A DNA stretch of 64,000 nt from a virus (lineage: Duplodnaviria; Caudoviricetes): IMG/VR virus record IMGVR_UViG_3300005512_000001, positions 128,001-192,000 of that record, one strand, 5' to 3'. Both the position numbers and the translations under genes were made by a program. A model generated the notes under the pieces. The model saw only the letters and a list, made by a program, of their open reading frames with translations, made no database searches and had not been told where the DNA came from. Below are positions 7,387 to 52,632 of this stretch, piece after piece (the stretch's first letter is position 1; every line of letters begins with the position of its first letter).

Positions 7387-8266
7387 AGGCATACGAAGAA
7401 CTATCATAGGATTATTGATTAGCACTACCTCGTTGGCTATATTGTGCGTACTATTAACAACGATTGTGATTATGCGGCCAACAGTAATAGAGAAAGTTGA
7501 CTCAGGCCCAGGTGTTGTGACATATGACTTGGGCAATGGCAGGAAAATTACCGCACCAGGCGATGGGATTATAGAATGGAGTGGGAATTTCACTGATATA
7601 ACAACCCCCACATCATTGAGTCGTACAGATGAAGCTGAAGCTGTAGGCGTGGCGTTTAAAGCTACTGGTGCGAATGGCAAGTTTATTTTAGAGATGGACT
7701 TTGAGCTGCCAGAAGCGAACATACCTGATGGCCCAACGAGCTTAGCCGGTCATGCTAATATGGGTGTCAAAGCCATCTTCTCTAATGGCGCAACATCAAT
7801 TTATATTATCGCCGCACTATCGATTTTAGTTGGTTGTGTGCTAGGATTCTGGCTAAAAGCTTGGAAAGTTGGGCTAGGGTTTATAGTTGGCGGCGTGACG
7901 ATGTTTGCAGTCGCAAAATTTTTCACAACATATCCTTGGGTGTTACTCATATTGTTTTTTGTGGTGATAGCTGTAGTCGGATTTATATTATGGGATTACT
8001 GGAAGAAACGAAAAACCGGCGAGACAATGGACGCCATTATTGCTGCTGGCGAGGGCTTGCCAACAAAAGTCAAGGCTGCTTTTACTAAATTAGTAAGTGC
8101 AGAGGCGCAGGCACGTGGTGTTAGCAGCACGGCTAAGAAGATTGTAAGTGAGCTTAAAACTAAGTCTGCAGTGCCGCTAGCTAAAATAGATTTAAGCGAT
8201 GAGTTAAAAGAAATATATGAGACGTTAAAAGAGCAACCAAATAATCTATCGGAGGATGAGGGTTAA
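7376..8266 (+). CDS. multi-pass membrane protein
   Basis: One N-terminal and three central hydrophobic helices; overlaps the lipoprotein gene. Confidence 0.7.
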   Translation: MSNKGIRRTIIGLLISTTSLAILCVLLTTIVIMRPTVIEKVDSGPGVVTYDLGNGRKITAPGDGIIEWSGNFTDITTPTSLSRTDEAEAVGVAFKATGANGKFILEMDFELPEANIPDGPTSLAGHANMGVKAIFSNGATSIYIIAALSILVGCVLGFWLKAWKVGLGFIVGGVTMFAVAKFFTTYPWVLLILFFVVIAVVGFILWDYWKKRKTGETMDAIIAAGEGLPTKVKAAFTKLVSAEAQARGVSSTAKKIVSELKTKSAVPLAKIDLSDELKEIYETLKEQPNNLSEDEG

Positions 8267-8318
8267 ACATTCACGCTGTTTCTTGATGTATTTATTATTA
8301 TATAGATTAGGAGACAGC

Positions 8319-9569
8319 ATGTTTAATACAAACTTCGTATTTCATCCAGGGAAAATAGCAGTACTGCTAGATGGTGGTGCTGGTTCTAGCGGCAAAGGCA
8401 AATTAGCATCTTTTATAGGTGAAAACGCCAGTAATTGGCAATTTTGCTGCCAAGCATTTATGTCGAACGCCGCGCATTGGGTAATCGACGATGATGGCAA
8501 TAAATATCTATACCAAGCCCTAAACTCGGTGGCACACCTAAAAGACAAATATGAAAAGATGTATATCTGCGGTGGTGCTGTTTTAGAACTAGAGCCGCTT
8601 CTAAAAGAAATCGAGCTACATGGGCTGACACCAGATAAACTTGGCATACATCCTGTTGTTGCGATTGTGCAGCAAAAAGATGTGGATTATGAGCGTGGGG
8701 TGTGCAATTTTGAGGGCGATCCGTTTGACAATATTGTTCAATCAGATTGTATGAAGCTTGGTTCCACATTACATGGGGTCGGAGCGGCTAGAGCTAGAAG
8801 AATTTTGAGGCGGTCAGATATCTTGATTGCTAGAGACGTACCAGAGCTGCAACCTTTCCTATGTCAAACAGACTGTGAGATGATGGATAGGTTAGAACGC
8901 GGCCAAGCAGGGCTATTGGAGATAGCCCAAGGCTACCAGCTCGGCTATCTCACAAAGTTCTATCCCAAAACCACATCTCGCAATTGTACTGTCGCAGCCG
9001 GGTTGGATGATTGCGGACTACCACCATCCGTAGTACAAGATGTTCTTATTAACTTTAGAACATTCCCAATTAGAGTTAACAATAATAAATATATTCATGC
9101 TGAAACTGGTGCAGTGCTTACAGGCCAGGATATGGATGAGATGCGGGCCGCTGGCAATGCTGATATGATTAAGACACTCAAGGGCGACTCCGGTGGTTGT
9201 TATGATGACCAAGAAGAAGTGACATGGGAGTATATTACCGAATCAAGTGGCGTTAAGAATCTAGACCCAACAAGGGAGATTCGCGAGAGAACATCACTCA
9301 CAAAACTAGAACGTAGAGCATACACTTTTAGCAAGCAAAATCTACAAGATGCGATAAGGTTCAATCGTGGTAATGGCCACACATATCTATCTATCAATTT
9401 CATAAACTATGTTGATATGGCAATTGAAGGAAAACGTGGCGGGCCTGAGCAATTGACCGACAAAATCAAGACATGGATAGACGCAAATATTGAAATTATA
9501 AACCCAGAGACAGAGACTCTGAAATTCCTGGGTACCGGCGCATTAACAAACGATATGGTCGTATTATAA
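8319..9569 (+). CDS. purZ: N6-succino-2-amino-2'-deoxyadenylate synthase PurZ (adenylosuccinate synthetase paralog)
   Basis: PurA fold motifs NAAH, LGST..GVG, EIAQG, YP.TTSR, RTFPIRV. PurZ-type substitutions: GSSGKG (Ser where PurA has Asp in GDEGKG), TSLTKLERR (Leu where PurA has Arg in TTGRxRR), NFINY replacing the GTP-specific TKLD. AGGAG before ATG 8319. Confidence 0.85.
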   Translation: MFNTNFVFHPGKIAVLLDGGAGSSGKGKLASFIGENASNWQFCCQAFMSNAAHWVIDDDGNKYLYQALNSVAHLKDKYEKMYICGGAVLELEPLLKEIELHGLTPDKLGIHPVVAIVQQKDVDYERGVCNFEGDPFDNIVQSDCMKLGSTLHGVGAARARRILRRSDILIARDVPELQPFLCQTDCEMMDRLERGQAGLLEIAQGYQLGYLTKFYPKTTSRNCTVAAGLDDCGLPPSVVQDVLINFRTFPIRVNNNKYIHAETGAVLTGQDMDEMRAAGNADMIKTLKGDSGGCYDDQEEVTWEYITESSGVKNLDPTREIRERTSLTKLERRAYTFSKQNLQDAIRFNRGNGHTYLSINFINYVDMAIEGKRGGPEQLTDKIKTWIDANIEIINPETETLKFLGTGALTNDMVVL

Positions 9570-10977: not shown

Positions 10978-13900
10978 TCATTCTATCAAACACGCACCGC
11001 CTGCACAAGCCTTCTCAGAACGCAGTGTTGTGTTGTCGTCTTCTTCCCTAAATTTCGTCCAGTCGATTGATTGGCTATTATTAATTAAATTCTGCCAGAT
11101 AGTTTTATCTGATTCTGTCTTAACCTCTTCCCTTGGTGCGTTAACATATTCTTTATCGCCTGTGTCTGGCAACATTGATACGCCGCTGAAGAATTTACGG
11201 TGCCGCCATAGGAATTCTTTTACATCATCCCATTCATCTTGCTTTACAGTAATGGTGTTAGAAACATTATGTGTCACACCAGGTGACGAATTTGGTTTTG
11301 CAGTTCCAGGAATAACCCAATTACGCTGGGTCATTAATACCTTTTCTAAGAATTCAATCGCTGTTAGGTCATGCCTAGTAATAGCATTTTCAGGTGCTTT
11401 GATAGGGAATGTGATTAGGTCTTTCCTGGCATCAACTGAAATGCACATATGTGGGTTCTTATTTTTAAAATGTTTATAGACTGGGCAGTCTGGGTTGGCA
11501 CGCACTCTCCTGAAATATTTCTCTGCATGATGAGTATGAATGCCACTACCAACTGCACCTAATACAATAGATGCAGAACCGCTTGGCTTAATACATGTGA
11601 CTCTGGCTGCGGTGTTAATTCCGATTCTATTTGCAATATCAATATTGGTTTCGACTGCTACCTGTGCAGCGTTTCTCTGGATTTCCGGATTTAGTGCGAT
11701 ATCAGGATTATCCATAACGCCGGTCATCGATACACCAAGTAGTGCCTCTTTATTGCAAACTGCTTCACTTACCCATCCAAGATATTTAAAATCAGTATAG
11801 CCAGCTTGAGCTGTGCCGATAATCGCAGCAGCCTTTACACGCTCATATAGCTCTTGTTCGTTATCAACATCAGATACATTTACTTCTGTTAGGTTGCACA
11901 TCTGCCATCCCCAATGGGTGGCATTTACTTTCAGGTTTGGGAGTTTGCGGTTAGTTGATGCTGCCCACTTGCTGAGGGACATCTTCAATTCTGGTGTGAT
12001 GGTCAACTTCGGATTCATCCCGATTTCTACACAATTATGAACATACAACCCATTAGCGTCAAAAGCAGATGGGCCTGGCACCGTACAATCATACACTGGA
12101 TGAATACCTATATGATCTATTGATTTGATGGTGTCATATATATTATCAGACCAAAAGTTATTGTCTTTAATCTCTTCTAATTTTTTGGCTTTTTGTGCGT
12201 TGCTAAACCCAACCTGTGACGCGAACCTTTTAATCGATTTACCAGATATGATTAAATCATGCGTCGCTGCACAAATTACTTTTTTATATCCACCATGACC
12301 ATTAGGCATTGGAATGCGACGTTCTGCATGCCTTTCTTTAGCAATATTAGATTTTATGCCAAAATAACTTAATATGAGTTGTACTTTTTTTAGGTTATCT
12401 AGTTGATTAGAACACAATCTAATACTATATCTTCCTTTAGACGCGATAGTAACAGTTCCATCTGCATCAAAATATCCAGTCAGAAACCCTCTTAATAACG
12501 ATTTGGATGACTTCAATAATTGATCAGATATATGCTTACCACCACCCTTTAAATTTAAATCTCTGAATAGATGATATGAAACTGCTAAATTATATAATTT
12601 TTTGCTTTCTGATTGCACATAAGGATTTGCAATAATTGCTTTACTAAATTTTTCTCTACTATAATTCGGATGATTTTCGGAATTAAGTCCAGATTTTTGT
12701 AAAATATCATTGGCAAATACCCTATCTTGATATTTATCATCACCCCAAAATTTTATTTGTGCTGAATTGCCACGTGCTCTTTTAACAATATTTCCATCAC
12801 CAATAAACCATCCCAATACCAGCCCCTTGCCCCATTCTTTTTCATCTGAATATTGGTTTGATGCAGAATGGCTACTATGATCATGCAATTTGATGTTGTC
12901 ACCAACCATCAAATTTCCAACAGATTGCCACCCATTATTAGTCATGACTTTGTGATTAGCAGTAATATCAATATGTCGGCCACTTTTCATCTCAACACGT
13001 AACACTTGTTTTGATCCTGTTGGGAAGAACCCATTAGATTTGAACTTTTTACCGTCAACTACTGCTTTAAATGGCACGTCAAGTAGGTCACATACTTGTT
13101 TTAATCCATCATCGGTGCTAACCCAAGTATCGCCAGTAACACATGGGTTTGCGCCGGTATCTTCATCATCTGTAAAATAAAATCCTGGCTCGCCCCATTG
13201 CTCTGTGGCTTTAAAGATTCGACAGAATTGTCTTTTCTTGATGTCTTTGCGATGCAAAACGACAGAATTATTTGCTCTAGCACGCCATGGATGTGTACTA
13301 TACCAGTTGCCAGTTTTTGAATTCATCATCTCACCATCATCTAGTGAGAATAAACAAATCATTGCTGCTTCTCTGATTCCGCCAGCATAAACGGCGTTAG
13401 CTAGCATACACATAATATCATAACATTCGATTGGTTTTAGTTGTCTACCTTGAGCATTTTCAAGCACCTTTCTGACATTGTTTAATGACGACTTCAATGG
13501 CAGATGCCCAGGTGCTCTTCCACCTGACGTTTTGAGTAATGCACCTTGTGGCCTGATTTTGTTGTATGCGAATTCAACATATACTCCTGTACGTAAGTAT
13601 GACCTAATAAGCTCATGGGCAGCGTCGGCCCATCCTTCTATAGTATCAGGTACTATATGGTGAATAACGTTTTTCTTGTCAATAAACTTGACAGGTTCTA
13701 GCTGGTCAATGTGCTGGAATTGGACTGAAAATCCAACGCCTGTTCCACTAAGTAGAAGCCAGAATGCTTCTGAGAATGCACGCGCCCTGTTTATAATAGA
13801 AAAGCTACAGTTATAACCTTTAGCATTATTTGCCTCCATCGCTGGGCCGCCAAACTGCATAGACCTCATTGATGGTAAGACTTGCTTCGCCCGCACTTTA

Positions 13901-14373
13901 TTAAACGCCCATTCCAATTCTTTTGTGATAGAAGGATATCTATCTATATGCATTTGCTCTACACGGTCGACTATTTCTGGGAAAATTTCCCGTCGATTGA
14001 GTTCTGGTTTAAAACGTGAGTATCGCGTCATAGTTACATAATCGGCCATCATTTCAGTGTTTGGCTCTATGCGTAATTTAGCTTGCCTATCACTAAAGAG
14101 GATGAAAGCTTCTGCTACCTCATGGTATTGGTAATCCATTAACTTGCGTTTGACAATACCAGTAATAACATCGGTAGCGATTACACCATTATCAGCGGTA
14201 ATAGCAGCCTCATTGATGATAGATTCGATCAGATTTTCAAATTTACCATTTATGTCATGGCCGGTTTCTGCCGCTGACCTTTTAATCCCATACTCAATTT
14301 TAGACTTGTCAAAATCGACTAATGAACCATCACGTTTTGACACCTTTGGTGTAGTTGCAACAGAAGTGGGCAT
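10978..14373 (-). CDS. nrdJ: class II (B12-dependent, monomeric RTPR-type) ribonucleotide reductase with N-terminal ATP cone and an intein
   Basis: ATP cone VSKRDGSLVDFDKSKI; YNCSF, GTGVGFS, DTIEGWA, GEPGF, NP|C..E, CNLTE, TCIKPSG; C-terminal CAGGAC. Confidence 0.9.
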   Translation of the reverse strand: MPTSVATTPKVSKRDGSLVDFDKSKIEYGIKRSAAETGHDINGKFENLIESIINEAAITADNGVIATDVITGIVKRKLMDYQYHEVAEAFILFSDRQAKLRIEPNTEMMADYVTMTRYSRFKPELNRREIFPEIVDRVEQMHIDRYPSITKELEWAFNKVRAKQVLPSMRSMQFGGPAMEANNAKGYNCSFSIINRARAFSEAFWLLLSGTGVGFSVQFQHIDQLEPVKFIDKKNVIHHIVPDTIEGWADAAHELIRSYLRTGVYVEFAYNKIRPQGALLKTSGGRAPGHLPLKSSLNNVRKVLENAQGRQLKPIECYDIMCMLANAVYAGGIREAAMICLFSLDDGEMMNSKTGNWYSTHPWRARANNSVVLHRKDIKKRQFCRIFKATEQWGEPGFYFTDDEDTGANPCVTGDTWVSTDDGLKQVCDLLDVPFKAVVDGKKFKSNGFFPTGSKQVLRVEMKSGRHIDITANHKVMTNNGWQSVGNLMVGDNIKLHDHSSHSASNQYSDEKEWGKGLVLGWFIGDGNIVKRARGNSAQIKFWGDDKYQDRVFANDILQKSGLNSENHPNYSREKFSKAIIANPYVQSESKKLYNLAVSYHLFRDLNLKGGGKHISDQLLKSSKSLLRGFLTGYFDADGTVTIASKGRYSIRLCSNQLDNLKKVQLILSYFGIKSNIAKERHAERRIPMPNGHGGYKKVICAATHDLIISGKSIKRFASQVGFSNAQKAKKLEEIKDNNFWSDNIYDTIKSIDHIGIHPVYDCTVPGPSAFDANGLYVHNCVEIGMNPKLTITPELKMSLSKWAASTNRKLPNLKVNATHWGWQMCNLTEVNVSDVDNEQELYERVKAAAIIGTAQAGYTDFKYLGWVSEAVCNKEALLGVSMTGVMDNPDIALNPEIQRNAAQVAVETNIDIANRIGINTAARVTCIKPSGSASIVLGAVGSGIHTHHAEKYFRRVRANPDCPVYKHFKNKNPHMCISVDARKDLITFPIKAPENAITRHDLTAIEFLEKVLMTQRNWVIPGTAKPNSSPGVTHNVSNTITVKQDEWDDVKEFLWRHRKFFSGVSMLPDTGDKEYVNAPREEVKTESDKTIWQNLINNSQSIDWTKFREEDDNTTLRSEKACAGGACLIE
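12034..13143 (-). mobile_element. intein with LAGLIDADG homing endonuclease in NrdJ (370 aa)
   Basis: GANP|CVTGDT ... ITANHKV ... LGWFIGDG ... LTGYFDADG ... VYDCTV ... VHN|CVE. Confidence 0.9.
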
Positions 14374-14590: not shown

Positions 14591-14884
14591 ATGAATAATT
14601 GCCCTGAACCTGTAAGTGGGGCTGTGCCACAAGATAGCCCACTTACTATTATTACTACTAAGATTAAACAGGCTAATTTATTTTCTATAGAATTAATAAA
14701 GCAAGCAGAATCTATATTACAAGTTCTCGATCGTAAGCTGCTTGGCAATCAAGCAACTGACGACGATTGTAAAGACAATCTTAAATCGATTGATGAAGAA
14801 TATATTATGCCGTATTTATGTGATACAGAAGCAAATCTTGGAAAGCTAGAAGCAATAATAATAAAGATAGCAGCACTAATCTAA
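14591..14884 (+). CDS. hypothetical protein
   Basis: 97 aa ORF with GAGGA upstream. Confidence 0.55.
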   Translation: MNNCPEPVSGAVPQDSPLTIITTKIKQANLFSIELIKQAESILQVLDRKLLGNQATDDDCKDNLKSIDEEYIMPYLCDTEANLGKLEAIIIKIAALI

Positions 14885-14914
14885 AGCAAAACTAAGACGC
14901 GCAAAATAGCAAAA

Positions 14915-14983
14915 CAATTACGAAACTCAGCAATTACGAAACTCAGCAATTACGAAACTCAGCAATTACGAAACTCAGCAATT
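14915..14983 (+). repeat. tandem direct repeat, 4.3 x 16 bp CAATTACGAAACTCAG
   Basis: Perfect copies at 14915, 14931, 14947 and 14963, plus a partial CAATT; no spacers. Confidence 0.95.
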
Positions 14984-14999
14984 TGTTCGCAGCAGAAGT

Positions 15000-15375
15000 G
15001 TTAAAAGGCCACGATCGGCATAAAGACAGCTCGCCGTCCAGAAGATGGCAGCGGTGAAATCCAATGATGATAGAGTGCCCGGTGGCCTCTTTTTACCAGG
15101 TAAAAGCCACCATAAAGAAGCGCAGGATCCCCTGGCCGACCAGAACCGTTAGGTTGGTGCAACGGGCCTATCGTTGGTTAGTACCCTAAGGATTAGAAAT
15201 TAGGCTCTACTAAGGAGCTGGAGAGAATCCGGCTGTAACCGAAAGTTCTTAAGTTGGCCACACTTAAAGGGTGAGGTGCGCTGGTACGGTATGGCCCCTC
15301 AGCCTGTGGTGGGTAGTTCACTATACTTAGAATATCCTTTCTTTTCTTTGTGAAACCTACCCCTGCGCAACTAAA
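15000..15375 (+). ncRNA. putative large structured non-coding RNA or structured DNA element, family unknown
   Basis: GC-richer, ORF-free stretch with stems at 15033-15049, 15081-15111, 15134-15168, 15249-15267, 15269-15304 and 15312-15361, and a long-range helix gcgcagg(15120)/cctgcgc(15362). Strand is a guess. Confidence 0.55.
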
Positions 15376-15462
15376 GGAGACCTGACTATTCTGATTGTAT
15401 TTAATGTTGGGAAAGATTACTAAAGCATTAAAGCATTAAAGAACTCAATAATCGGAGATACG

Positions 15463-16137
15463 ATGAGAGTACCAATTCGTGATGCGGATAGGTTCTTTGT
15501 TGAACTTGATGAGATAGAAAAAATACACTCATACAATATTGATATTAGAAATAGGGAAATATTCATATCTGGGGAGGATGGGCTTGACCCAGATATAGAG
15601 CCTGGCGTTAATTATATTATGTCTGCTAGGTTGATACGTAATCTCCGAATATTAGTTAATCGCAGTAATAAGCCAATATTAATTCATATGAAAACATGTG
15701 GGGGCAGTTGGAACGAGGGGATGGCCATGTATGATGCAATCAAATCATGTCCAACCCATGTTACTATATTGAACTATACTCACGCACGTAGTATGAGTTC
15801 ATTGATATTGCAAGCTGCAGACAGACGAGTTATGATGCCACATTCTGAATTTATGTTTCATCATGGGACATATAGCGATGACGGCGAGATGGTAACTGTT
15901 ATGTCCAACTTAGATTGGTACCGGCGCACAATAGATGTTATGTGCGGCATCTATGTTGATGTTATGAAGGAAACTCCAGGCAGTAAATGGGTAAAGGTTT
16001 CAAAAGATAAGATTAGGCAATGGCTGGATGAGCAGATGGAAAAGAAAAATGATGTATTTATGTCTGCCGAAGATGCTGTGTGCAATGGGTTTGCTGATGC
16101 GGTATTCGACAATGATTGGGGAAAGTTAGTTGGATGA
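15463..16137 (+). CDS. clpP: ClpP-like serine protease
   Basis: REIFISG, PILIHMKTCGGS...GMAMYDAIK, ARSMSSLIL (catalytic Ser), MMPHSEFMFH, DVFMSAEDAV..GFAD. Confidence 0.85.
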   Translation: MRVPIRDADRFFVELDEIEKIHSYNIDIRNREIFISGEDGLDPDIEPGVNYIMSARLIRNLRILVNRSNKPILIHMKTCGGSWNEGMAMYDAIKSCPTHVTILNYTHARSMSSLILQAADRRVMMPHSEFMFHHGTYSDDGEMVTVMSNLDWYRRTIDVMCGIYVDVMKETPGSKWVKVSKDKIRQWLDEQMEKKNDVFMSAEDAVCNGFADAVFDNDWGKLVG

Positions 16138-16724
16138 TTGTTTCAAAGAAGCACAAGTTTGCTTTTGTACATATTCCGAAAACTGGTGGGACTTCTATTA
16201 CGTTGATGCTTAAGCCATATCTTGGTAGTGGGCCGACCCATGGCCGAGGGTGGCAAAAGGCATATCATAAATATGAATTACATTCCCCATTAATGCCATT
16301 TAATCATATGGGTAATTATTTTAAATTCGCATTTGTTAGAAATCCGTGGGATTGGCTGGTCTCGTTATATCATACTGGTGCGATTAATAGGATGATAGGC
16401 CGAGCTAAAAGGGCTAAAAAACCAGCATGGAATGAATTAATACGAATGATAAATGCTGGGGCTGTGTCAGTTAGATGCCAATCAACATGGCTCAAATGCC
16501 ATGCTGTGTCAGTTGATTATGTTGCAAGATTTGAACAATATGAAAAAGAAGTAGCATATATCTTTAACCGATTGGGACTTAAGTACAAAAATATACCACA
16601 TAGATTGAACAATGGAAGGAAGCGGCAACATTATACTGAATGGTATGATGCTAATAGCCGACGGGTGATTGGGCGGCTGTTTAAACATGATATAACTGCT
16701 TTTAAATATAAATTTGGGAAATAA
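16134..16724 (+). CDS. sulfotransferase family 2 protein
   Basis: FVHIPKTGGTS and FVRNPWDWLVSLY (PAPS-binding motifs). Confidence 0.85.
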   Translation: MIVSKKHKFAFVHIPKTGGTSITLMLKPYLGSGPTHGRGWQKAYHKYELHSPLMPFNHMGNYFKFAFVRNPWDWLVSLYHTGAINRMIGRAKRAKKPAWNELIRMINAGAVSVRCQSTWLKCHAVSVDYVARFEQYEKEVAYIFNRLGLKYKNIPHRLNNGRKRQHYTEWYDANSRRVIGRLFKHDITAFKYKFGK

Positions 16725-16732
16725 TAATAATA

Positions 16733-16951
16733 ATGTTACAATTATTAAAAAAATGGCTAAAGCGTGAGACTCATGTGTTTGTACATTTTGATGGCCCTAT
16801 AAATATAAATATTTCCGGCGAGTATACAAGTTCACAAAATGCAAGTATTTTAAAACAAGGTACGAACGCTGAAGATGATGTTCAGGTTGAGCCAGTATTA
16901 GGCAATATTGAGCTACCTGTGGCAGACTTCGGACAGAACATTAAAGGTTAG
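16733..16951 (+). CDS. hypothetical protein
   Basis: 72 aa ORF directly upstream of the actin-like gene. Confidence 0.55.
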   Translation: MLQLLKKWLKRETHVFVHFDGPININISGEYTSSQNASILKQGTNAEDDVQVEPVLGNIELPVADFGQNIKG

Positions 16952-16953
16952 AT

Positions 16954-18018
16954 ATGGCCACTGAATACAATAGAATCGGATTAGACCTTGGGACCAAAAC
17001 CATTGTGTGTGCGATCAGGTCTGGTGATGGTAGACTTACATTTCGCAAAGAAATAAATGGATTTTTTGTGTTTCCTAAGAAAGATGCGTTCACTAGGAAT
17101 ATGTTAGTGAAGCAGAAGATTCCGTTTATAGAGCGAGATGGGAGATTTATTGCCCTCGGGTCTAGGGCGGAACAATTTGCGTATGCGATTAACTCGACAT
17201 TACGTAGGCCAATGGCTGAAGGCACTGTTAGTAGAGAACAAGAGGCCATAAATATTATGGCTTCGATTGTTCAAGCACTTATTGGCAAGCTTGAAAAAGA
17301 TACGATTTTATATTATTGCATCCCAGCAAACGCACTTAATAAACAGACGAATGTGCAATACCATGATAAGGTTGCTAGGTTGATATTTGATAGTTATAAG
17401 AGGTCCGAAGTCACAATTAATGCATACTCAATTAATGAGGCTAGGGCGATTGCAATTGGCAGTGACGAACCTTTAGCGGTTGCAATCTCTTGGGGCGCTG
17501 GCATGATTAATACATGCTATACGATGTTTGGTGTGCCGATATTTGAATTCTCGTTGGTGGGGTCAGGTGACTGGATTGATACTGAAGCTGCAAAGCAATT
17601 TGGTTACAATCCTGATAACCCAACTCAGAAATCTCAAGAAACTCCTACTAGTATTTGCCATCGGAAGCATGATATTGATTTGACAGTTCCTTTGAAAGAA
17701 GCTAATAGGGTTGACCAAGCAATAATGTTGCATTACCAGCTTCTGATTGAGAATGTCATTAATGGCATTATTAATGGATTTGAAAGCAACATCGATAAAG
17801 CCAGAATCGAGCAACCAGTTCCAATCATAATGGCTGGTGGCACAGCTTCACCTGTTGGCTTCAAGGAATACTTCACTCAAATCCTTAACAATCATACATT
17901 GCCGTTTGAGGTATCTGAAGTTAAATTGAGCCCAAAACCTTTGTTTGCAGTCGCAGAAGGCTGCCTTGTTGCCGCTGAGATGCATGAAGTTGAGGAATCA
18001 GAAGAGGCAGAAGGTTAG
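16954..18018 (+). CDS. actin-like ATPase (MreB/FtsA/ParM superfamily)
   Basis: Phosphate-1 IGLDLGT, LRRPMAEG, connect-1 INEARA, phosphate-2 SWGAGMIN, GSGDWID, adenosine IMAGGTA, connect-2 AVAEGC. Confidence 0.8.
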   Translation: MATEYNRIGLDLGTKTIVCAIRSGDGRLTFRKEINGFFVFPKKDAFTRNMLVKQKIPFIERDGRFIALGSRAEQFAYAINSTLRRPMAEGTVSREQEAINIMASIVQALIGKLEKDTILYYCIPANALNKQTNVQYHDKVARLIFDSYKRSEVTINAYSINEARAIAIGSDEPLAVAISWGAGMINTCYTMFGVPIFEFSLVGSGDWIDTEAAKQFGYNPDNPTQKSQETPTSICHRKHDIDLTVPLKEANRVDQAIMLHYQLLIENVINGIINGFESNIDKARIEQPVPIIMAGGTASPVGFKEYFTQILNNHTLPFEVSEVKLSPKPLFAVAEGCLVAAEMHEVEESEEAEG

Positions 18019-33406: not shown

Positions 33407-34786
33407 ATGAAAATGCCCGTAAAAGAAATTAAAGCATGCATAAAATACACAGGCCCAACTGAGTTTGTTCACTTACATTGTCATACCGTCTATTCAACTC
33501 TAGATGGTGTGCAGACGCCGGAACAACTATTTGCTGCATGTGCTGAACGCGAATGGCCCGCTATTGCGATCACAGAGCATGGTGTGTTATCGTCTGTACC
33601 TGATAATTATTTTGCGGCGAAAGCGAATGGGGTTAAGTATATCGCAGCTTGTGAGATATACTTTAACGACTTTGAGCCATTAAGGCAAGAAATTATAGCT
33701 AATGGCGATACACTTAGTTCTATAAAACAGTCTGACCCTATGTTGCATTCTAGGATAGTTCGTAATCGGCATCTTACATTATTGGCTAAGAACATGACGG
33801 GCTTCAGTAACCTTATTAGGATGGTTACTGAAGCCCATAAATTTGGATTTTATGGCAGACCTAGAATATGGTTTGATAAACTACTTGAATATAAAGAGGG
33901 TCTGATAGTATTGTCTGGATGTTTAAATGGGCCAGTATCTCATGAGATTAGGCAAGATATATTACGGTCGGACAATGGGCGTGGTGCTATAGATTATGTG
34001 TTGAAATTTAGAGAGGCATTCGGAGATGATTATTATCTAGAATTACAAATGCCATGTCTTCCGGATGCTGATGCTAAAGATAAACCAGCGTTTTGGGTAT
34101 TAGACAAAATCTCTAAGAAGTTCAACATTCCATCTGTTTTGACTAATGATGCGCATTATTTAAACCGGGAAGATTTTCAAATCCAAAAACTAATGATGGC
34201 CATTAGTCAGAATTTGACAATAGATTCTCCTGATTTATTCCACGTCAATAGTGATGAACAATTCCTAAAAACTAGGGCTGAGCTATATGATACTTTCAAG
34301 CGGCATGGTTATGACAAACATACTGGCGATGACCGATTCGAAATCATGTGCGACAATACGTTGGCTGTGGCTGGTAAATGTGAATATTTCGAACCAGACC
34401 TAGAGCCGAAAATACCCACTGGCGACGGCGACCCCGTAAAATTGAAACAAATGGTTGTTCGAGAGCTTATGCGTCGTGGTTTGCATAAATGTGCTGATAA
34501 ATATGTTGTTGATAACCGCGAAGTTACATATTTTGAACAAGCTAAGATTGAACTCAATAGGTTCATAGAAAAGGGGTTCGCTAGTTATTTTTTAATTACC
34601 CGAGATTTGATACAGTTTAGTCTATCTAATGGATGGCCTATAGGGCCTAGAGGTAGTGTGGGTGGCTCGCTAGTATGTTATTTGCTTGGCATCACAGAAT
34701 TAGACCCATTGAAATGGGGGCTATCGTTTAATAGGTTTTTATCGCCATCGCGTGGTGGCTACATGTTAAATATAAAGGCTGAATAA
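33407..34786 (+). CDS. dnaE: DNA polymerase III alpha, N-terminal half (PHP domain to first palm segment)
   Basis: HLHCHTVYSTLDG, TEHG, HLTLLAKN, TNDAHY, GFASYF, GPRGSVGGSLVCYLLGITELDP, FNRFLSPSR; ends before PDID. Confidence 0.9.
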   Translation: MKMPVKEIKACIKYTGPTEFVHLHCHTVYSTLDGVQTPEQLFAACAEREWPAIAITEHGVLSSVPDNYFAAKANGVKYIAACEIYFNDFEPLRQEIIANGDTLSSIKQSDPMLHSRIVRNRHLTLLAKNMTGFSNLIRMVTEAHKFGFYGRPRIWFDKLLEYKEGLIVLSGCLNGPVSHEIRQDILRSDNGRGAIDYVLKFREAFGDDYYLELQMPCLPDADAKDKPAFWVLDKISKKFNIPSVLTNDAHYLNREDFQIQKLMMAISQNLTIDSPDLFHVNSDEQFLKTRAELYDTFKRHGYDKHTGDDRFEIMCDNTLAVAGKCEYFEPDLEPKIPTGDGDPVKLKQMVVRELMRRGLHKCADKYVVDNREVTYFEQAKIELNRFIEKGFASYFLITRDLIQFSLSNGWPIGPRGSVGGSLVCYLLGITELDPLKWGLSFNRFLSPSRGGYMLNIKAE

Positions 34787-35998: not shown

Positions 35999-36401
35999 AA
36001 TTTTTGCAGCAAGTAGTAGAGACAATCAAATGGCAAGTTATGGTGCAGTGCTGCATGATGCCACTTTAGATGAGAAGTTTGAGTCATCGCAAATAATTGG
36101 TGATTATTCAAGGAACCAAGCAGATTTGATTGCTATGGTAATGGCATTGCGATGTGTTAAGACTGAATTTAAAGATGCCGAGATCATATTACATAGTCCG
36201 CCAGCATATGCCTCGCAGGTGGTTGAGAGGAACGACGATAACAAGTGGGTTTCAAACTCAAAAGCGAATATAGATATTGTGCGAGAGGTCCGGGGTTTGA
36301 TTGAAGAGTTTCCCAATTTGATGATTAAAAAATCTAGCGCCAACGAGGCGGCATTCAAAAGATGCATTGAGATTGCTAAAATATGTCTAAACAACAAGTA
36401 A
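35985..36401 (+). CDS. RNase HI-fold protein, apparently catalytically degenerate
   Basis: YGAVL, SRNQADLIAMVMAL, W...KANIDIV align with RNase HI, but the DG and TDS acidic residues are missing. Confidence 0.55.
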   Translation: MRQIEIFAASSRDNQMASYGAVLHDATLDEKFESSQIIGDYSRNQADLIAMVMALRCVKTEFKDAEIILHSPPAYASQVVERNDDNKWVSNSKANIDIVREVRGLIEEFPNLMIKKSSANEAAFKRCIEIAKICLNNK

Positions 36402-38899
36402 GTTGGAGCAAATTAAAAAAGCTCGCCACTATGCTTGCTGAGAAAAGGAAGCTTGATGCTGAGTATGTACGTAGACTCAAATTCGAGATAAAGGAAATTG
36501 AAAAACAGGGTGCCAATACATATTGGACCGAGCAATTTAATGATGGCAATAAATACGATACCAATAAAAACGGATTAGTATTGCCATGGTTAATTGGACT
36601 CACCCCTGTTGACCCCTTGAAGTCTGAACATGAGATTATTAGGTCGACCGATTTGCCAGATATTGATGTTGATTGTTTACCGCAGGCAAGAGATAAGATT
36701 AAAGCATATGCGGCTGAAAAGTATGGCAAAGAATATGTATGTAGTGTTGGCACATGGTTGACATATAAGTTTCGGTCTGCACTTCAGGATGCCGCGAGAG
36801 GTCTTGGTAGTGATTTCCGAGACGCGATGATAGTAACAAAAACGCTGCCTGACGATATAGATGACTTAAAAGATGGTGGGTATGCAGCATGCTCTAATTG
36901 CGGCAATAAGCATAAGCGTGTGCAATGTCCGTCATGTGGTAGTGTCGATACTGAAGGCATCACTATTGGCCAGATGTTGGAAGAACATGAAACTTTAAAT
37001 GCATATTATACACAGAATCCTGATGTTGTTGATAAAGCGGTGCTGCTTGTTGGTAAAATTAGGGCTATGGGCAAGCATGCAGGTGGCGTGATTATAACGA
37101 ATCGTAAGCTCATGGGCAATGTGCCGATGGGAATCAGTAAAGGGTCCGATGGCGAAGCACAATGGACTAGTATGTGGACTGAAGGCCGGAATACTCAACT
37201 ATCCAAACTTGGATATGTAAAATGGGACTTGCTTGGGTTAAAGACACTTCAATATATTCATGATGCTTGTAAGTTAATAGAACAGACACGCGGTTATAAA
37301 TTCAATATTCTACCGTGGCAGGACAATGACCCGACAGCTAATTTGGTTGGTTGGTATTTAGATGATAATGGCGAGCGGCATGATGTACAGATGGACGACC
37401 CAGATGTTTTTAAGATGATAAATGATTTAAGGGTTGAAACGTTATTCCAATTCGAGACCGACGTGCAACGCAATGTGCTGTCTAATGGTGTGAGAAATTA
37501 TTATGATTTACAGGTTTTTAATGCTATGGGCCATCCTGGGCCGATTGCATTTATACCAGAGTATGTGGAACGCAGAGATGATAATAATCAGACCTGGAAG
37601 CGCTTAGAACATCCAGATATAGCTGCGGAATTGGAAGATACGCACGGCATTATTGTTTATCAAGAGCAATTGCAGAAGATATGGCAAAAATTTGCCGGAT
37701 TTACAGCCCCCGAGGCTGAAAAAGCTAGAAAAGCTGTAGCCAAAAAATGGCGCGAACAGCTTAAGGGTATAGAGGCACATTGGAAGACTGGTGCGGCTAA
37801 AACATTAGGTGTCAAATGGGCTGATATAATGTGGGACCGCATGATTAGTTTTGGTAGGTATGCCTTCAACTTAAGCCATAGCTGTGCTTATATTTTGGTG
37901 GCGTATTGGTGTGCATGGTTAAAAGCACATTTCCCGCCAGAGTGGTGGGCAGCGGTAATGAGCGGGTGCCATCCCGATCGAATACCGAAATATATGAACA
38001 CCGCCAGGCTAGAAGGAGTGAAATTCGGTGCTATAAGTGCAGAGGAGCTTACTAAAAACTTTTCTGTGGCACCGAATTTAGAAGTAACACCAGGTCTTAC
38101 GAGCATTAAAGGAATTGGTGCTAAAGCTGCTGTGAAATTAGAAGGCCGCCATGCATTTAAAGACATAGATGAATTTATTACGGTTGTAGGCAAGGACAAA
38201 CGGGTAATGGAGCCTCTTATTAAATTAGGGGCATTTTCAAAATATCATCAAAATCTAAAAGCAACATGGATGTGGTATCAATTCAAGTATTGTACAAGCA
38301 AAGCAATAACGGCGTTAAAGAAGGAAATTAAAGAAAAATTAGTCGCACACTGGACCCCGGAAGCGATTGAAAAGCAACGGAAGCTTTTTGTAGATGGTTT
38401 TAAAGCAGAATTTCCAAAACGCAAAGTTCCAGCGAAGACGCTAAATTGGAAGCCAAAACCAGACCCCACCCGGAAGAATGTGATGGCGTTGTTTGAGGAT
38501 GACTTCTCTTTGAAAGAGCGGTTGGATTTTGAAAGGCAGTATTTAGGATATTATTGGCACTCGCCATTAGACCTCTATGATATTGATGGGTTGACAATAC
38601 AATCTGTTAAAGAAGCGATTGGCAATAGAGGTAGGATTGAAGTAGTGGTTGAGAGTCTGACTATTGGTAAGACTAAAACCCAAAAGAGGATGGGTAGGCT
38701 GAAAGTAACAGATGGGTTAGCGGACTGTACGATTATCTTATGGGCCAACCAGTTAGAAGTGCTGGGGCCATATTTAAAAGAAGGTGTCGGCATACGATTA
38801 GATGTTAAGTATGACCCATCTAGAAATAGTTTTACGTTAGGGCAACGTGATACAGTGCCGATTTTGCTGAGGCCGAGGTCTGATGAAAAATCAGAATAA
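36383..38899 (+). CDS. dnaE: DNA polymerase III alpha, C-terminal half (catalytic palm, fingers, HhH, OB fold) with Zn-ribbon insertion
   Basis: LPDIDVD, GKHAGGVII, VKWDLLGL, LFQFE, THGIIVYQEQ, YAFNLSHSCAY, WLKAHFP, IKGIG, ERQYLGYY; CSNC..CPSC insert. Confidence 0.9.
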   Translation: MSKQQVSWSKLKKLATMLAEKRKLDAEYVRRLKFEIKEIEKQGANTYWTEQFNDGNKYDTNKNGLVLPWLIGLTPVDPLKSEHEIIRSTDLPDIDVDCLPQARDKIKAYAAEKYGKEYVCSVGTWLTYKFRSALQDAARGLGSDFRDAMIVTKTLPDDIDDLKDGGYAACSNCGNKHKRVQCPSCGSVDTEGITIGQMLEEHETLNAYYTQNPDVVDKAVLLVGKIRAMGKHAGGVIITNRKLMGNVPMGISKGSDGEAQWTSMWTEGRNTQLSKLGYVKWDLLGLKTLQYIHDACKLIEQTRGYKFNILPWQDNDPTANLVGWYLDDNGERHDVQMDDPDVFKMINDLRVETLFQFETDVQRNVLSNGVRNYYDLQVFNAMGHPGPIAFIPEYVERRDDNNQTWKRLEHPDIAAELEDTHGIIVYQEQLQKIWQKFAGFTAPEAEKARKAVAKKWREQLKGIEAHWKTGAAKTLGVKWADIMWDRMISFGRYAFNLSHSCAYILVAYWCAWLKAHFPPEWWAAVMSGCHPDRIPKYMNTARLEGVKFGAISAEELTKNFSVAPNLEVTPGLTSIKGIGAKAAVKLEGRHAFKDIDEFITVVGKDKRVMEPLIKLGAFSKYHQNLKATWMWYQFKYCTSKAITALKKEIKEKLVAHWTPEAIEKQRKLFVDGFKAEFPKRKVPAKTLNWKPKPDPTRKNVMALFEDDFSLKERLDFERQYLGYYWHSPLDLYDIDGLTIQSVKEAIGNRGRIEVVVESLTIGKTKTQKRMGRLKVTDGLADCTIILWANQLEVLGPYLKEGVGIRLDVKYDPSRNSFTLGQRDTVPILLRPRSDEKSE

Positions 38900-45002: not shown

Positions 45003-45269
45003 ATGCCATATTATGAAATACGACAATTTGATAAGATTAAATTACGTACCACTAAAAATATCCGTTACTTATCGGCACCGCCCAATGAGATGCCAAGCCC
45101 GCATGGTATCTGGACTGTAGTGGCTAATATAAATAAGGATTTATTAATTTGTAAAGGCGATGCTATATGTAGAGTGCCAGTCTCAGATGTTGTTATCGCC
45201 GGACGATCAGAAATAGACCGTATACTGGAGAGAATAGATGGCAAAAAAGCAAAAGCCAAATCAGAGTAG
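45003..45269 (+). CDS. hypothetical protein
   Basis: First ORF of the recA-helicase operon. Confidence 0.6.
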   Translation: MPYYEIRQFDKIKLRTTKNIRYLSAPPNEMPSPHGIWTVVANINKDLLICKGDAICRVPVSDVVIAGRSEIDRILERIDGKKAKAKSE

Positions 45270-46929
45270 AGAATTTGACAATAAAGAAGATGTCATGAAA
45301 GCTATTGATGACAAATTTGGGAATGGTGCTATAACATTGGGAGCTGGACCGGCACTTGATGTTCCATCTATTAGTACTGGATCGGCTTCACTTGATTTGG
45401 CATTAGGGGTATGGGGAATGCCAAAAGGCCGTATCGCTGAAGTATATGGCCCAGAGAGTAGTGGTAAGACCACATTATGCTTATCAATAATCAAGGAGTG
45501 TCAGAAGCAAGGTGGCGTAGCTGCTTTTGTTGATGCTGAACATGCGTTAGACCCAACATGGGCAAGCAATATAGGTGTTGATATTGACAACCTAATGATT
45601 AGCCAGCCATCATCTGGTGAAGAGGCATTAAGTATTGTTGAGATGCTGGCCGGTTCAAAACAGGTTGATCTTATTGTGGTTGATTCAGTTGCTGCGTTGA
45701 TTCCTCAAGCTGAAATTGATGGTGAGATGGGCGATAGGCAGATTGGTGCCCAGGCTCAATTAATGAGCAAGGCTATGCGTAAGCTTGTTAGTATAACCAA
45801 TAAATCCAATTGTACAATTATATTTATCAACCAAATTAGAATGAAGATTGGTGTTATGTTCGGTTGTTTGCATGGCGATACATTGATTAATTTTGTTGAT
45901 GGTAGTGCATTGCCAATTAAAGATGTTGTTGAAAAGAAAATTGAAGGCGATGTCTGGTGTTATGACGAAGGAAGCAATAACTTTGTTGGACGCAAGATTA
46001 TTGATTGGCACAATAATGGTGATGTTCTTGATAAATGCGATTTTCTGTCTATATTGTTGAGGGGGCCAGGCAATGGCAATGGGCGTATGAATATATGTGT
46101 TACGCCAAATCATCGCGTTTTGACCGATAATGGATGGGCTGAAGCCGGTGACTTGATAATTGGTGATAGAATAATGACGAAGCAAAAGAATATTCTATCT
46201 GGTGATTCGCATTGTATGAGAAGGAAATTACCAGATGGCGTAGATGATTGTAGGGAGTGTACACTACATGTGACTGGCCAATATAGCACCACCTATGCGG
46301 AAGTGGTATCTATTAGAACGGCTAGTAGCAGACAGTTTAGAACAAAAGGGAAATATGATATAACTGTTGATGGCTGCCACAATTATTCCGCTGGTGGTCG
46401 CCATAATGGTGTGATTGTTCATAATTCGCCGGAGACCACACCAGGCGGCCGGGCATTGAAATTCTATTCTTCCATTAGACTTGATATTCGGCGTGCCGGT
46501 GCGATCAAGAAGGGCGATGATAACATTGGGAACTCAATTAAGGTAAAAGTTGTTAAAAATAAGGTTGCGCCGCCATTTAGGCAAGCTGAATTCGGACTAT
46601 ATTTTGGGAGAGATGGATATCCGAGTGGTATTGATTATGCTAGTTCGTTGGTTGATATTGCAGTTGATGTCGGCATTATCAAACAACAAGGGTCGTGGTA
46701 CAATTATGGCGAAATGAGACTTGGGAATGGCCAAGAGAATGCCTATGGCATGATTCGTAGTAATATTGATTTGATGGCAGAGATTAGCGATAAAGTGCGA
46801 GCGGCTTTTAGTCCTGATGGTGTCGATACGGATACAGAAGATACAGAAGATAAAGATATAGAAGATAAAGATATAGAAGATAAAGATATAGAAGATAAGT
46901 CTGATGTATTAGAGGATTTCGAAGAATGA
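45238..46929 (+). CDS. recA: RecA recombinase with mini-intein and acidic repeat tail
   Basis: ISTGSASLDLALG, GPESSGKTT, DAEHALDP, VDSVAAL, FINQIR.KIGVMFG|...|SPETTPGGRALKFYSS, KNKVAPPF. Confidence 0.95.
   Translation: MAKKQKPNQSREFDNKEDVMKAIDDKFGNGAITLGAGPALDVPSISTGSASLDLALGVWGMPKGRIAEVYGPESSGKTTLCLSIIKECQKQGGVAAFVDAEHALDPTWASNIGVDIDNLMISQPSSGEEALSIVEMLAGSKQVDLIVVDSVAALIPQAEIDGEMGDRQIGAQAQLMSKAMRKLVSITNKSNCTIIFINQIRMKIGVMFGCLHGDTLINFVDGSALPIKDVVEKKIEGDVWCYDEGSNNFVGRKIIDWHNNGDVLDKCDFLSILLRGPGNGNGRMNICVTPNHRVLTDNGWAEAGDLIIGDRIMTKQKNILSGDSHCMRRKLPDGVDDCRECTLHVTGQYSTTYAEVVSIRTASSRQFRTKGKYDITVDGCHNYSAGGRHNGVIVHNSPETTPGGRALKFYSSIRLDIRRAGAIKKGDDNIGNSIKVKVVKNKVAPPFRQAEFGLYFGRDGYPSGIDYASSLVDIAVDVGIIKQQGSWYNYGEMRLGNGQENAYGMIRSNIDLMAEISDKVRAAFSPDGVDTDTEDTEDKDIEDKDIEDKDIEDKSDVLEDFEE
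45865..46425 (+). mobile_element. mini-intein (187 aa) in RecA, no intact endonuclease
   Basis: FG|CLHGDT ... VTPNHRV ... KYDITV ... IVHN|SPE; no LAGLIDADG motif seen. Confidence 0.88.
46846..46898 (+). repeat. 3.5 x 15-bp tandem repeat GAAGATAAAGATATA (EDKDI)
   Basis: Directly visible at the recA 3' end. Confidence 0.9.
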
Positions 46930-51181: not shown

Positions 51182-52561
51182 ATGAAGAATAATGATGTGA
51201 TAGACGCAAAATGTAGTGTTTGCAACACCATTTCCAAAATAAAATGCGAATCATATAAGCGGACCCTAAAGCGTAGCGGTAAATATCGATGTTTATCTTG
51301 CGCAACTTCACAGGCTCTCAAAAAATCACCACGCAATACAGATAAGCTGATTGGATGGTCCAAGAGCGATGCAGGGCGAGCTGCAGCATCGCGTGTACTA
51401 AAGCAGAGGTGGGAGGATAACTACGACGAACTTTTGGGGTATATTAATGCTAATTGGAAAAACCAAGAGACTATCAACAAGCAAAAAGAAATACATGAAT
51501 TTTCCAATCGCCCTGACCTCCGTGTAAAATTTAGGAAGATATGGGCGTCAAAAGAATATCGGGAAGCTGTTAGTGATGGTGTTCGAAGATTGTGGGAAAA
51601 CCCAAAATATAGAGAAAAAATGGCTGCGTCTAGGATTAGGTATAGAGGCATTGTATCTAATATCCAGAAAATATTGTATTCATTGCTTGATGACTTGGGG
51701 ATAAAGTATTATAGAGAATATAATGGGCATAGTGATCCACAATGTAAAATCGGACCATGGACTTTTGATTGTGTAGTCCCGAGAAGCAATAAACCAGACC
51801 TATTAATAGAGTGCCAAGGCGATTATTGGCATTCTCTGTCAGAAAATATGCAGCGTGACCGGCAAAAGGCATCATATATCTCAAATAATTTGAGTGGTCG
51901 ATATGAATTGAAGTATATTTGGGAACATGAATTTTATGCGAAAGACCGAATACGAATGCTTTTGGCGTATTGGGTTGGTTTGAAGCGACATGATATTATT
52001 GACTTCAATTTTAAAGATGTTGCTATTAGAAAATGCGTAGCTAAAGATTATAAATTGTTGTTGTCTAAATACCACTATCTTGCGAATGCTGGGAGAGGAG
52101 GGATTGCTTATGGGGCATATGTGGGAGATAGACTTGCCTCTATATGTGTTTTCTCACCACTACCTAGACAGAATATTGCTAAATCACTAGGCTGTTTAGA
52201 TAAAGAGGTGCGTGATTTATCTAGATTATGTATTCACCCTAATTATCAAAAGAAAAATTTTGCTTCTTGGTTTGTGAGCCGATGTATAAAACTACTCCCA
52301 CCACAATATGCAATAGTCATCGCATATTGTGATACTACATTTGGGCATAACGGGGTTGTCTATGAAGCGTCTAATTTTAAATTAGATAAAGAAATTAGAC
52401 CCGATTATTGGTACACAAAGCCAGATGGATGGATAATGCATAAAAAGACGTTGTATGATCGTGCTGTGAAAATGGGGATTAAAGAAAGGGAATTTGCTGA
52501 ATTGCATGGATATATTAAAGTAAAGGGTGATAAGAAATATAGATATGTTTTTAAAAGATAA
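51182..52561 (+). CDS. DUF559/Vsr-like endonuclease fused to Mom/Hef-like GNAT-fold domain (copy 1)
   Basis: NUMOD-like W-x-x-P-x-Y-R helical repeats; WTFDC...IECQGDYWH...RD..K...YIWEHE; KYHYL...DLSRLC...AYCDTTFGHNGVVYEASNF...PDYWY. Confidence 0.75.
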   Translation: MKNNDVIDAKCSVCNTISKIKCESYKRTLKRSGKYRCLSCATSQALKKSPRNTDKLIGWSKSDAGRAAASRVLKQRWEDNYDELLGYINANWKNQETINKQKEIHEFSNRPDLRVKFRKIWASKEYREAVSDGVRRLWENPKYREKMAASRIRYRGIVSNIQKILYSLLDDLGIKYYREYNGHSDPQCKIGPWTFDCVVPRSNKPDLLIECQGDYWHSLSENMQRDRQKASYISNNLSGRYELKYIWEHEFYAKDRIRMLLAYWVGLKRHDIIDFNFKDVAIRKCVAKDYKLLLSKYHYLANAGRGGIAYGAYVGDRLASICVFSPLPRQNIAKSLGCLDKEVRDLSRLCIHPNYQKKNFASWFVSRCIKLLPPQYAIVIAYCDTTFGHNGVVYEASNFKLDKEIRPDYWYTKPDGWIMHKKTLYDRAVKMGIKEREFAELHGYIKVKGDKKYRYVFKR

Positions 52562-52632
52562 CAATAATTTGATGTATTTGAAACTCAGCAGCTAATGAGT
52601 GTCAAAAAGCTCAAAGCAGAAAGGAAAATGAA

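Follow-up and report, generated by a model that had tools for sequence, protein, structure and literature searches.

A probable new family of large structured RNAs upstream of the Volactin operon in a sub-clade of T4-like jumbo phages

The locus and its genes

The stretch of DNA analysed here (64,000 nucleotides, the window) comprises bases 128001-192000 of a phage record that measures 341,434 bp, ends in direct terminal repeats, and has a T4-type Gp23 as its capsid gene. The phage genome carries 44 tRNA genes, most of them inside one region of about 30 kb at genome positions 305-335 kb, outside the window, while ARAGORN gave no tmRNA either in the 64-kb window or in the whole genome, and a search of the 341-kb genome for a reverse transcriptase with RVT_1 gave no match. 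Between a 97-aa orphan ORF (14591-14884, + strand) and a ClpP-like gene (15463-16137, + strand) lies an ORF-free gap of 578 nt (14885-15462); few non-tRNA gaps of the 341-kb genome are longer, in agreement with the unusual length claimed in the preliminary description of this DNA. The GC-richness claimed there was also borne out, with a GC fraction of 0.515 at 15000-15299 against 0.34-0.39 in the flanks, and of about 0.51 at 15025-15392. The same description had placed a structured non-coding element at 15000-15375, and a conserved element is indeed present there, although its limits are slightly shifted, to 15025-15392 on the + strand, the span of the covariance model R2 described below. A coding reading of the stretch was rejected because its open frames carry no Pfam or PHROG signal, and it is further disfavoured by 1- and 2-nt indels within the conserved blocks.

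Downstream of the element are found a small ORF, a homologue of the Volactin-type actins, and genes of glycan synthesis; in the window, no terminator-like site separates the element from the gene that follows. The 72-aa ORF and the Volactin-type actin homologue (16733-18018, + strand; Pfam Volactin, 1.7e-49) are separated from the element by ClpP and a sulfotransferase gene (together 15463-16724). Pfam recognises no DNA-binding fold in the small ORF, and our literature searches found no report of such an RNA or of phage Volactins.

Upstream, a perfect tandem repeat of 16 nt × 4.3 (14915-14983, detected with TRF) adjoins the element without being part of its conserved portion; this repeat is unique in the genome, and its 11-mer GAAACTCAGCA recurs once, at 52580-52590, upstream of the next ORF. 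Further upstream, on the - strand, positions 10978-14373 encode a 1131-aa ribonucleotide reductase that reads, by its translation, as class II (NrdJ). The NrdJ copies of the relatives have the Pfam ATP-cone and RNR-II insertion domains and measure 758-765 aa, so that the window copy is about 370 aa longer; given the LAGLIDADG-like motifs in this extra part, it is probably an intein. Elsewhere in the window, a RecA homologue (45238-46929, + strand) is interrupted by an intein, with the Pfam Intein_splicing domain lying between the RecA core and RecA_C, and a DnaE-type DNA polymerase III alpha is encoded in two separate pieces, by ORFs that lie about 1.6 kb from each other (33407-34786 and 36383-38899, + strand), one with the PHP domain and the start of the NTPase domain, and the other with the NTPase, finger, and HhH domains. 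A 459-aa protein (51182-52561, + strand) has a Mom-family domain and a REase_MTES_1575-like domain, a combination that suggests a function in DNA modification.

Five copies of the element

Sequence searches did not reveal relatives of the element. No match was obtained by blastn of the gap against GenBank phages or against 47 related IMG/VR records (capsid similarity 73-90%), the matches of a 16-mer scan over viral contigs were all chance ones in coding sequence, and homologues of the neighbouring ClpP elsewhere are not accompanied by the element. Degenerate patterns made from the translated open frames of the RNA (six per scan) were run over metagenome and genome contigs and found no relative either, the sole match, L112, being rejected as a chance PAS-domain gene, and scans with conserved-block motifs gave either the relative G006 or chance matches. 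The first homologue came to light through a single hairpin, h5, when the raw MFE fold of the window copy was made into a single-sequence covariance model (R1), which gave one significant partial match, restricted to this hairpin, in G006 (E 1.8e-5). This recovery of only one hairpin also indicates that much of the MFE fold is wrong. The G006 locus (L114) has tandem repeats, then an ORF-free stretch of about 450 nt with the conserved blocks and visibly compensatory hairpins, and then a 73-aa ORF and a Volactin-family actin homologue, with the actin homologue 62% identical to that encoded at 16954-18018 in the window, and the small ORF 32% identical.

With the Volactin protein as a handle, contigs of closer relatives were fetched, and three of them carry the element: L138 (Volactin 82% identical), where it is followed by a sulfotransferase gene; L135 (79%), where the order is NrdJ on the opposite strand, the gap, a 74-aa ORF, and Volactin; and L141 (73%), with the same gene order as L135. 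The second covariance model (R2), built on the window sequence with the helices of the sequence-only alignment and three 3' hairpins, matches its positions 1-368 end to end in L135, L138, L141, and L114 of G006, with scores of 142, 142, 107.5, and 46.6 bits, respectively, and E values of 4e-41 to 2e-12. Together with the window copy (G000), this makes five members (46.6 to 489 bits), all of which combine a full-length R2 match, with Ha, Hb, h2, h5, and the 3' block present, with a position upstream of a small ORF and a Volactin-type actin gene. The model found nothing else in the remaining loci or in 43 further related records. Several relatives with Volactins 70-79% identical (L136, L137, L139/140, L142, and L157) have the same operon without the element, while the more distant G006 (62%) carries it, and more remote relatives have coding sequence at its position; in L142, a reverse-transcriptase gene (RVT_1, 8120-9038) lies about 3 kb downstream of Volactin. 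The element must therefore be dispensable or replaceable, given that close relatives keep the operon without it, and the family is small and patchy, with five members in a single sub-clade of T4-like jumbo phages.

In every member, the strand of the element is that of the next gene. Its 3' end lies 10-23 nt before the small ORF in L135, L141, and G006, and about 70 nt before ClpP in G000 or the sulfotransferase gene in L138. The interval occupied by ClpP and the sulfotransferase gene in the window contains only the sulfotransferase gene in L138, and neither of the two in G006, L135, and L141, which suggests that genes were inserted immediately 3' of the RNA. Neither ClpP nor the 97-aa ORF is found in the nearest large relatives, from which it follows that ClpP is a later insertion.

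Helices, covariation, and fold

A plain sequence-only MAFFT alignment of the five copies was submitted to RNAalifold, which departed from most of the single-sequence MFE fold and predicted instead the 5' hairpin Ha, the long-range helix Hb enclosing hairpin h2, hairpins h5 and h6, and a 3' hairpin. In this alignment, 91.3% of the cells form standard pairs compared with 79.3% after shuffling, and double changes occur in 31 of 57 pairs compared with 12.2 ± 2.6 in the shuffles (0/500), whereas sliding the partners by 1-3 columns leaves at most 9. When the alignment was fitted with the covariance model, which is the only way to align the 3' third (h8-h10), 93.8% of the cells form standard pairs (75.4% shuffled), and double changes occur in 43 of 80 pairs (19.4 ± 3.1 shuffled, 0/500; at most 11 with partners slid by 1-3 columns). 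These tests rest on five sequences of one clade, with a shuffle control that ignores phylogeny. Compensatory changes thus support at least nine helices across the five sequences, far above both shuffled and slid controls, and the blocks in loops and junctions are conserved as well, while the flanks are unalignable.

From 5' to 3' on the + strand, the element opens with hairpin Ha (15029-15052; GCU.GCCGUC / GAUGGC.AGC), which has a conserved CAGAA(G) loop, double changes in six of its nine pairs, and 97.6% of cells paired, and which is predicted on the sequence-only alignment as well as on the CM-fitted one. Helix Hb joins the segments CC, AUGAU, AG, and GCCC at 15061-15080 to GGGC CU AUCGU. 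GG at 15164-15177; here GCCC/GGGC and AG/CU are invariant, while the 5-bp and 2-bp segments covary, with double changes in five of seven pairs. Inside Hb, hairpin h2 (15081-15111; GGUGGC..UUUUAC CAG GUAAAA..GCCACC) has an outer stem that is paired in 100% of cells and doubly changed at four of six pairs. Beyond Hb follow hairpin h5 (15179-15212; UAGUA.CCUAA, loop GGAUUAGAAA, UUAGG CUC UACUA), with double changes in eight of ten pairs, and hairpin h6 (15216-15234), with a conserved GAGAGAA loop, 100% pairing, and double changes in four of seven pairs, which is absent in G006. A conserved UAACCGAAAG lies 3' of h6 (15237-15246).

The 3' third consists of hairpin h8 (15249-15267; UUAAGU [UGGCCAC] ACUUAA; 88.9% paired, double changes in three of six pairs), the length-variable hairpin h9 (15272-15301; UGAGG / CCUCA; four of five pairs), and the A/U-rich terminal hairpin h10 (15311-15362; GGGUAG UUCAC / GUGAA..CUACCC; nine of eleven pairs, 82.9% of cells paired), all three seen with the CM-fitted alignment only, although a long hairpin stands at the position of h10 in all members. 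The element ends in a conserved purine-rich block, AAAGGGGACCUGNCUA; the 3' block at 15373-15388 (AAAGGAGACCUGACUA, consensus CAAAGGGGACCUGNCUA) is conserved in the five members.

Of the stems drawn in the preliminary description, gccgtc/gatggc is thus Ha and ggtggc..gccacc is h2, both supported by the compensatory changes given above, and ttaagt/acttaa, tgagg/cctca, and ggtag-ttcac/gtgaa-ctacc reappear as h8, h9, and h10 in the CM-fitted alignment. The nested acc-aacc/ggtt-ggt is specific to G000, gctc/gagc conflicts with two covarying hairpins, and the pseudoknot proposed between gtacc and ggtac finds no support since it overlaps the strongly covarying h5 (15179-15212). Another helix, 15133-40/15253-60 ("Hc"), looked conserved by eye and failed the best-helix test against shuffles.

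The long-range helix gcgcagg/cctgcgc, which we call P1, pairs GCGCAGG (15120-15126) with CCUGCGC (15362-15368), and had been proposed to close a domain of about 250 nt. It occurs in one register in all five members and is the best helix between corresponding windows, but its support is only moderate, with window-shuffle p values from 0.004 to 0.93. Its form is GCGCAGG/CCUGCGC in G000 and GCGCAAG/CUUGCGC in L141 (7 pairs each), GCGGAG/CUCCGC in L135 (6 pairs), GCGC/GCGC in L138 (4 pairs), and ACCUUGGA/UCCAAGGU in G006 (8 pairs), and it closes the unconstrained MFE fold of the core in both G000 and G006. Since Hb closes a loop that contains the 5' strand of P1 but not the 3' strand, P1 crosses Hb, and a pseudoknot results if both helices form, so the RNA is probably pseudoknotted via Hb and P1. 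The 3' strand of P1 also overlaps an alternative 3' hairpin, CCCCU (15360-64)/AGGAG (15375-79), which is present in most members and, in the sequence-only alignment, is 88% paired with double changes in three of five pairs. Because of this overlap, P1 and the 3' hairpin would be mutually exclusive and may form a switching element.

Folding energies agree with a structured + strand. Positions 15000-15375 fold at -130 kcal/mol (z -2.70, equalled by 0/100 shuffles) compared with z -0.40 on the - strand, and the 249-nt core (15120-15368) reaches z -3.04 on the + strand (0/200 shuffles) compared with -0.66 on the - strand, so that only the + strand folds better than its shuffled controls. Nonetheless, values of about -2.2 to -2.4 are reached by other gaps of the same genome, which makes the fold z unexceptional, suggestive rather than decisive, and the case for the element rests on conservation and covariation in four homologues and not on z alone. 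In the G006 copy, both strands fold equally well, and the + strand is favoured by the 15 G.U cells against 5 A.C cells in the alignment. The strand, the ends, and the leader status of the RNA are thus inferred.

Possible roles and relation to known RNAs

An element conserved in sequence and synteny, covarying and strand-biased, therefore exists upstream of the Volactin operon, and we are confident that 15025-15392 (+ strand) is a functional structured RNA. No Rfam 15 family (4227 models) reaches its gathering threshold anywhere in the window, where ARAGORN likewise gives no match, and at E<=10 the copies of G000, G006, L138, and L135 give chance miRNA, snoRNA, or viral matches only. Hence, with five full-length members and strong compensatory covariation, the idea of a new phage ncRNA class gained support, and the element is most likely a member of a previously uncatalogued family of structured RNAs of about 370-410 nt in a sub-clade of T4-like jumbo phages.

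Being co-directional with the operon and just 5' of it, with no terminator before the next gene and no origin signal in the GC skew, the RNA is best read as a cis-acting 5' leader of the Volactin operon, a role to which we give an even chance. Such a leader, on binding either a small molecule or a protein, would control the expression, processing, or stability of the operon mRNA. Like the regulatory leaders already described (cobalamin riboswitch, T-box, glmS, and the T4 gene 32 pseudoknot), the element immediately precedes a co-directional operon, folds into many helices with a probable pseudoknot and conserved junctions, has a P1 that competes with a 3' hairpin, and, in three members, continues into an A/U-rich unstructured stretch leading to the start codon. 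In contrast to them, it matches no Rfam leader, it is, at about 370 nt, larger than most riboswitches, and its Shine-Dalgarno-like block is too distant for classic sequestering. In three members, 22-38 nt separate this 3' block from the start codon, and in the other two the next gene is 70 nt away, so that every conserved start codon is too distant for a simple model of RBS sequestering to fit; and as the block occurs only once in the 341-kb genome, a general promoter motif is rejected as well.

The main rival to a leader is a stand-alone large ncRNA gene, trans-acting or structural, of the "ornate" kind of GOLLD, ROOL, and OLE, that happens by chance to precede the Volactin operon. The element does have the look of such RNAs, with its ~370 nt, many helices, probable pseudoknot, and highly conserved loops and junctions; its patchy distribution resembles that of a mobile accessory gene; and in G000 and L138, it is directly followed by genes other than the small ORF. 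We nevertheless find this only a possible account, appreciably less probable than a leader, given that the element shows neither a promoter nor an intrinsic terminator that could be recognised as its own, is always co-directional with the next gene at 10-70 nt, and always occupies the same operon slot. Compared with the ornate ncRNAs (GOLLD, ROOL, OLE, HEARO, and raiA), it is likewise large, highly structured, phage-borne, and recognised by covariation only, but it matches none of their Rfam models (GOLLD, ROOL, and OLE included), is smaller than GOLLD, ROOL, and OLE, is tied to one operon slot rather than to tRNA clusters or IscB-type proteins, and is so far limited to five members, narrowly and patchily distributed. 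In the way it would work, the element comes closest to a large regulatory leader or an ornate ncRNA, and it belongs to no described family.

More specifically, the RNA might represent a riboswitch or ligand-responsive ribozyme of a new class, in which a pseudoknotted aptamer of ~370 nt would gate the actin-like and glycan-decoration operon by switching between P1 and the 3' hairpin; the sensed metabolite would be, for example, a nucleotide-sugar, PAPS, cobalamin, or a nucleotide signal. We consider this rather unlikely.

The element might instead act at the DNA level, as a replication origin or as a par-type centromere for the actin-like protein, with the repeats as iterons and the hairpins as protein-binding or cruciform sites, or as the template of a primer RNA. 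Actin-like systems of the ParM type have repeat centromeres upstream of their operon, and here too perfect tandem repeats stand just upstream of the element in G000 and G006; the equal folding of both strands in G006 would also suit this proposal. We judge it improbable, however, because strong arrays are found only in G000 (16 nt × 4.3) and G006 (8 nt × 8.4 and 16 nt × 2.8), that is, in two of the five members, whereas repeats are weak in L135 and L141 and absent from the portion of L138 examined, and all of them lie outside the conserved block, with units of differing sequence. Moreover, G.U exceeds A.C by 15 to 5, the fold excess of G000 is strand-specific, and a long-range helix with a pseudoknot suits single-stranded RNA and not duplex DNA. 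Unlike the parC, ParMRC, and Alp systems, with which it shares the position upstream of an actin-homologue operon and, in two members, the adjoining repeats, its conserved part is a covarying single-strand fold of ~370 nt and not an iteron array, and the small ORF has nothing in Pfam of a DNA-binding fold. The origin-associated RNA suggested earlier found no support, and a replication origin was rejected on GC skew: the minimum of the cumulative GC skew is reached at genome position ~134000, about 9 kb from the element, and follows gene orientation, while the element travels with the small ORF and the Volactin operon.

Less probable still is that the element is a highly diverged representative of some known class, be it the cobalamin riboswitch, the glmS ribozyme, a group I intron-like ribozyme, tmRNA, or RNase P RNA. 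The motifs GGUGAAAUCC, GCCCG, and GGAGACCUG resemble the core and the B12 box of the cobalamin riboswitch, a likeness that serves only as a lead, and the AdoCbl-dependent NrdJ is the divergent neighbour in three members. Against this, RF00174, RF01482, and RF01689 have no match at E<=10 in four members, ~320 nt separate GGUGAAAUCC from GGAGACCUG, and the element is oriented away from NrdJ, from which it is also distant in G006. The crossing of Hb and P1 resembles the P3/P7 topology of group I introns, but no exons flank the element in the window, since ClpP is full length compared with its homologues (100% coverage) and the upstream 97-aa ORF is separate and complete; the flanks of the other members are non-coding DNA and the start of the small ORF, and Intron_gpI gives no match.

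In favour of a tmRNA, the phage has 44 tRNAs and no detected tmRNA; such an RNA has an acceptor stem with G3.U70, a T-arm with a 7-nt loop, a 3' (N)CCA, and a tag reading frame. Both ARAGORN and Rfam are negative, the acceptor-like P1 has no G3.U70 and is variable in sequence (positions 1-3 are G-C, C-G, and G-C, varying between members), and the hairpin next to P1 has a loop of ~28 nt. The RNA of bacterial RNase P is recognised by its P4 pseudoknot, formed from CR-I (GGAAAGUCC-type) and CR-V; no such model matches at E<=10 in four members, and no CR-I- or CR-V-like blocks occur among the invariant columns. The glmS ribozyme gave no Rfam match at E<=10 in the same number of members, and the ncRNA of a retron, DGR, or DRT was discarded for want of any RVT_1 match in the 341-kb genome. 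This agrees with the preliminary description, in which the element could not be matched to tRNA, tmRNA, RNase P, introns, or a riboswitch.

That the stretch is conserved filler without function, or the remnant of a decayed gene, is hardly credible and is largely refuted by the covariation: related phages do lack it, and other gaps of the genome do fold with z near -2.4, but double changes in 31-43 pairs far exceed the shuffled and slid controls, loop and junction blocks are conserved beside unalignable flanks, and the 1- and 2-nt indels within conserved blocks come with no protein-family signal.

To our knowledge, it is rare to find a large and intricately folded RNA that covaries strongly and falls into no known class, and earlier RNAs of this kind have led to new riboswitches, ribozymes, or RNA-protein machines. 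The operon that hosts this one joins an actin homologue with a large glycan-synthesis island, in environmental T4-like jumbo phages, and should the RNA serve in sensing or processing, it would reveal how the timing or tuning of cytoskeleton and surface-glycan genes is achieved in a huge phage. With ~370 nt and compact long-range pairing, it is also a practical target for cryo-EM and ligand screening.

One more observation concerns the same operon slot in a sister phage with a Volactin 74% identical, where L139 (40-420, + strand), and also L140, has an unrelated GC-rich stretch of ~400 nt. It matches neither Rfam nor R2 and folds with z -2.68 on the + strand (0/100 shuffles) compared with -1.47 on the - strand. 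This stretch may be a second, different leader RNA, and finding a different structured element in the slot of a sister phage hints that this gene neighbourhood has a set of leader RNAs in rapid evolution.
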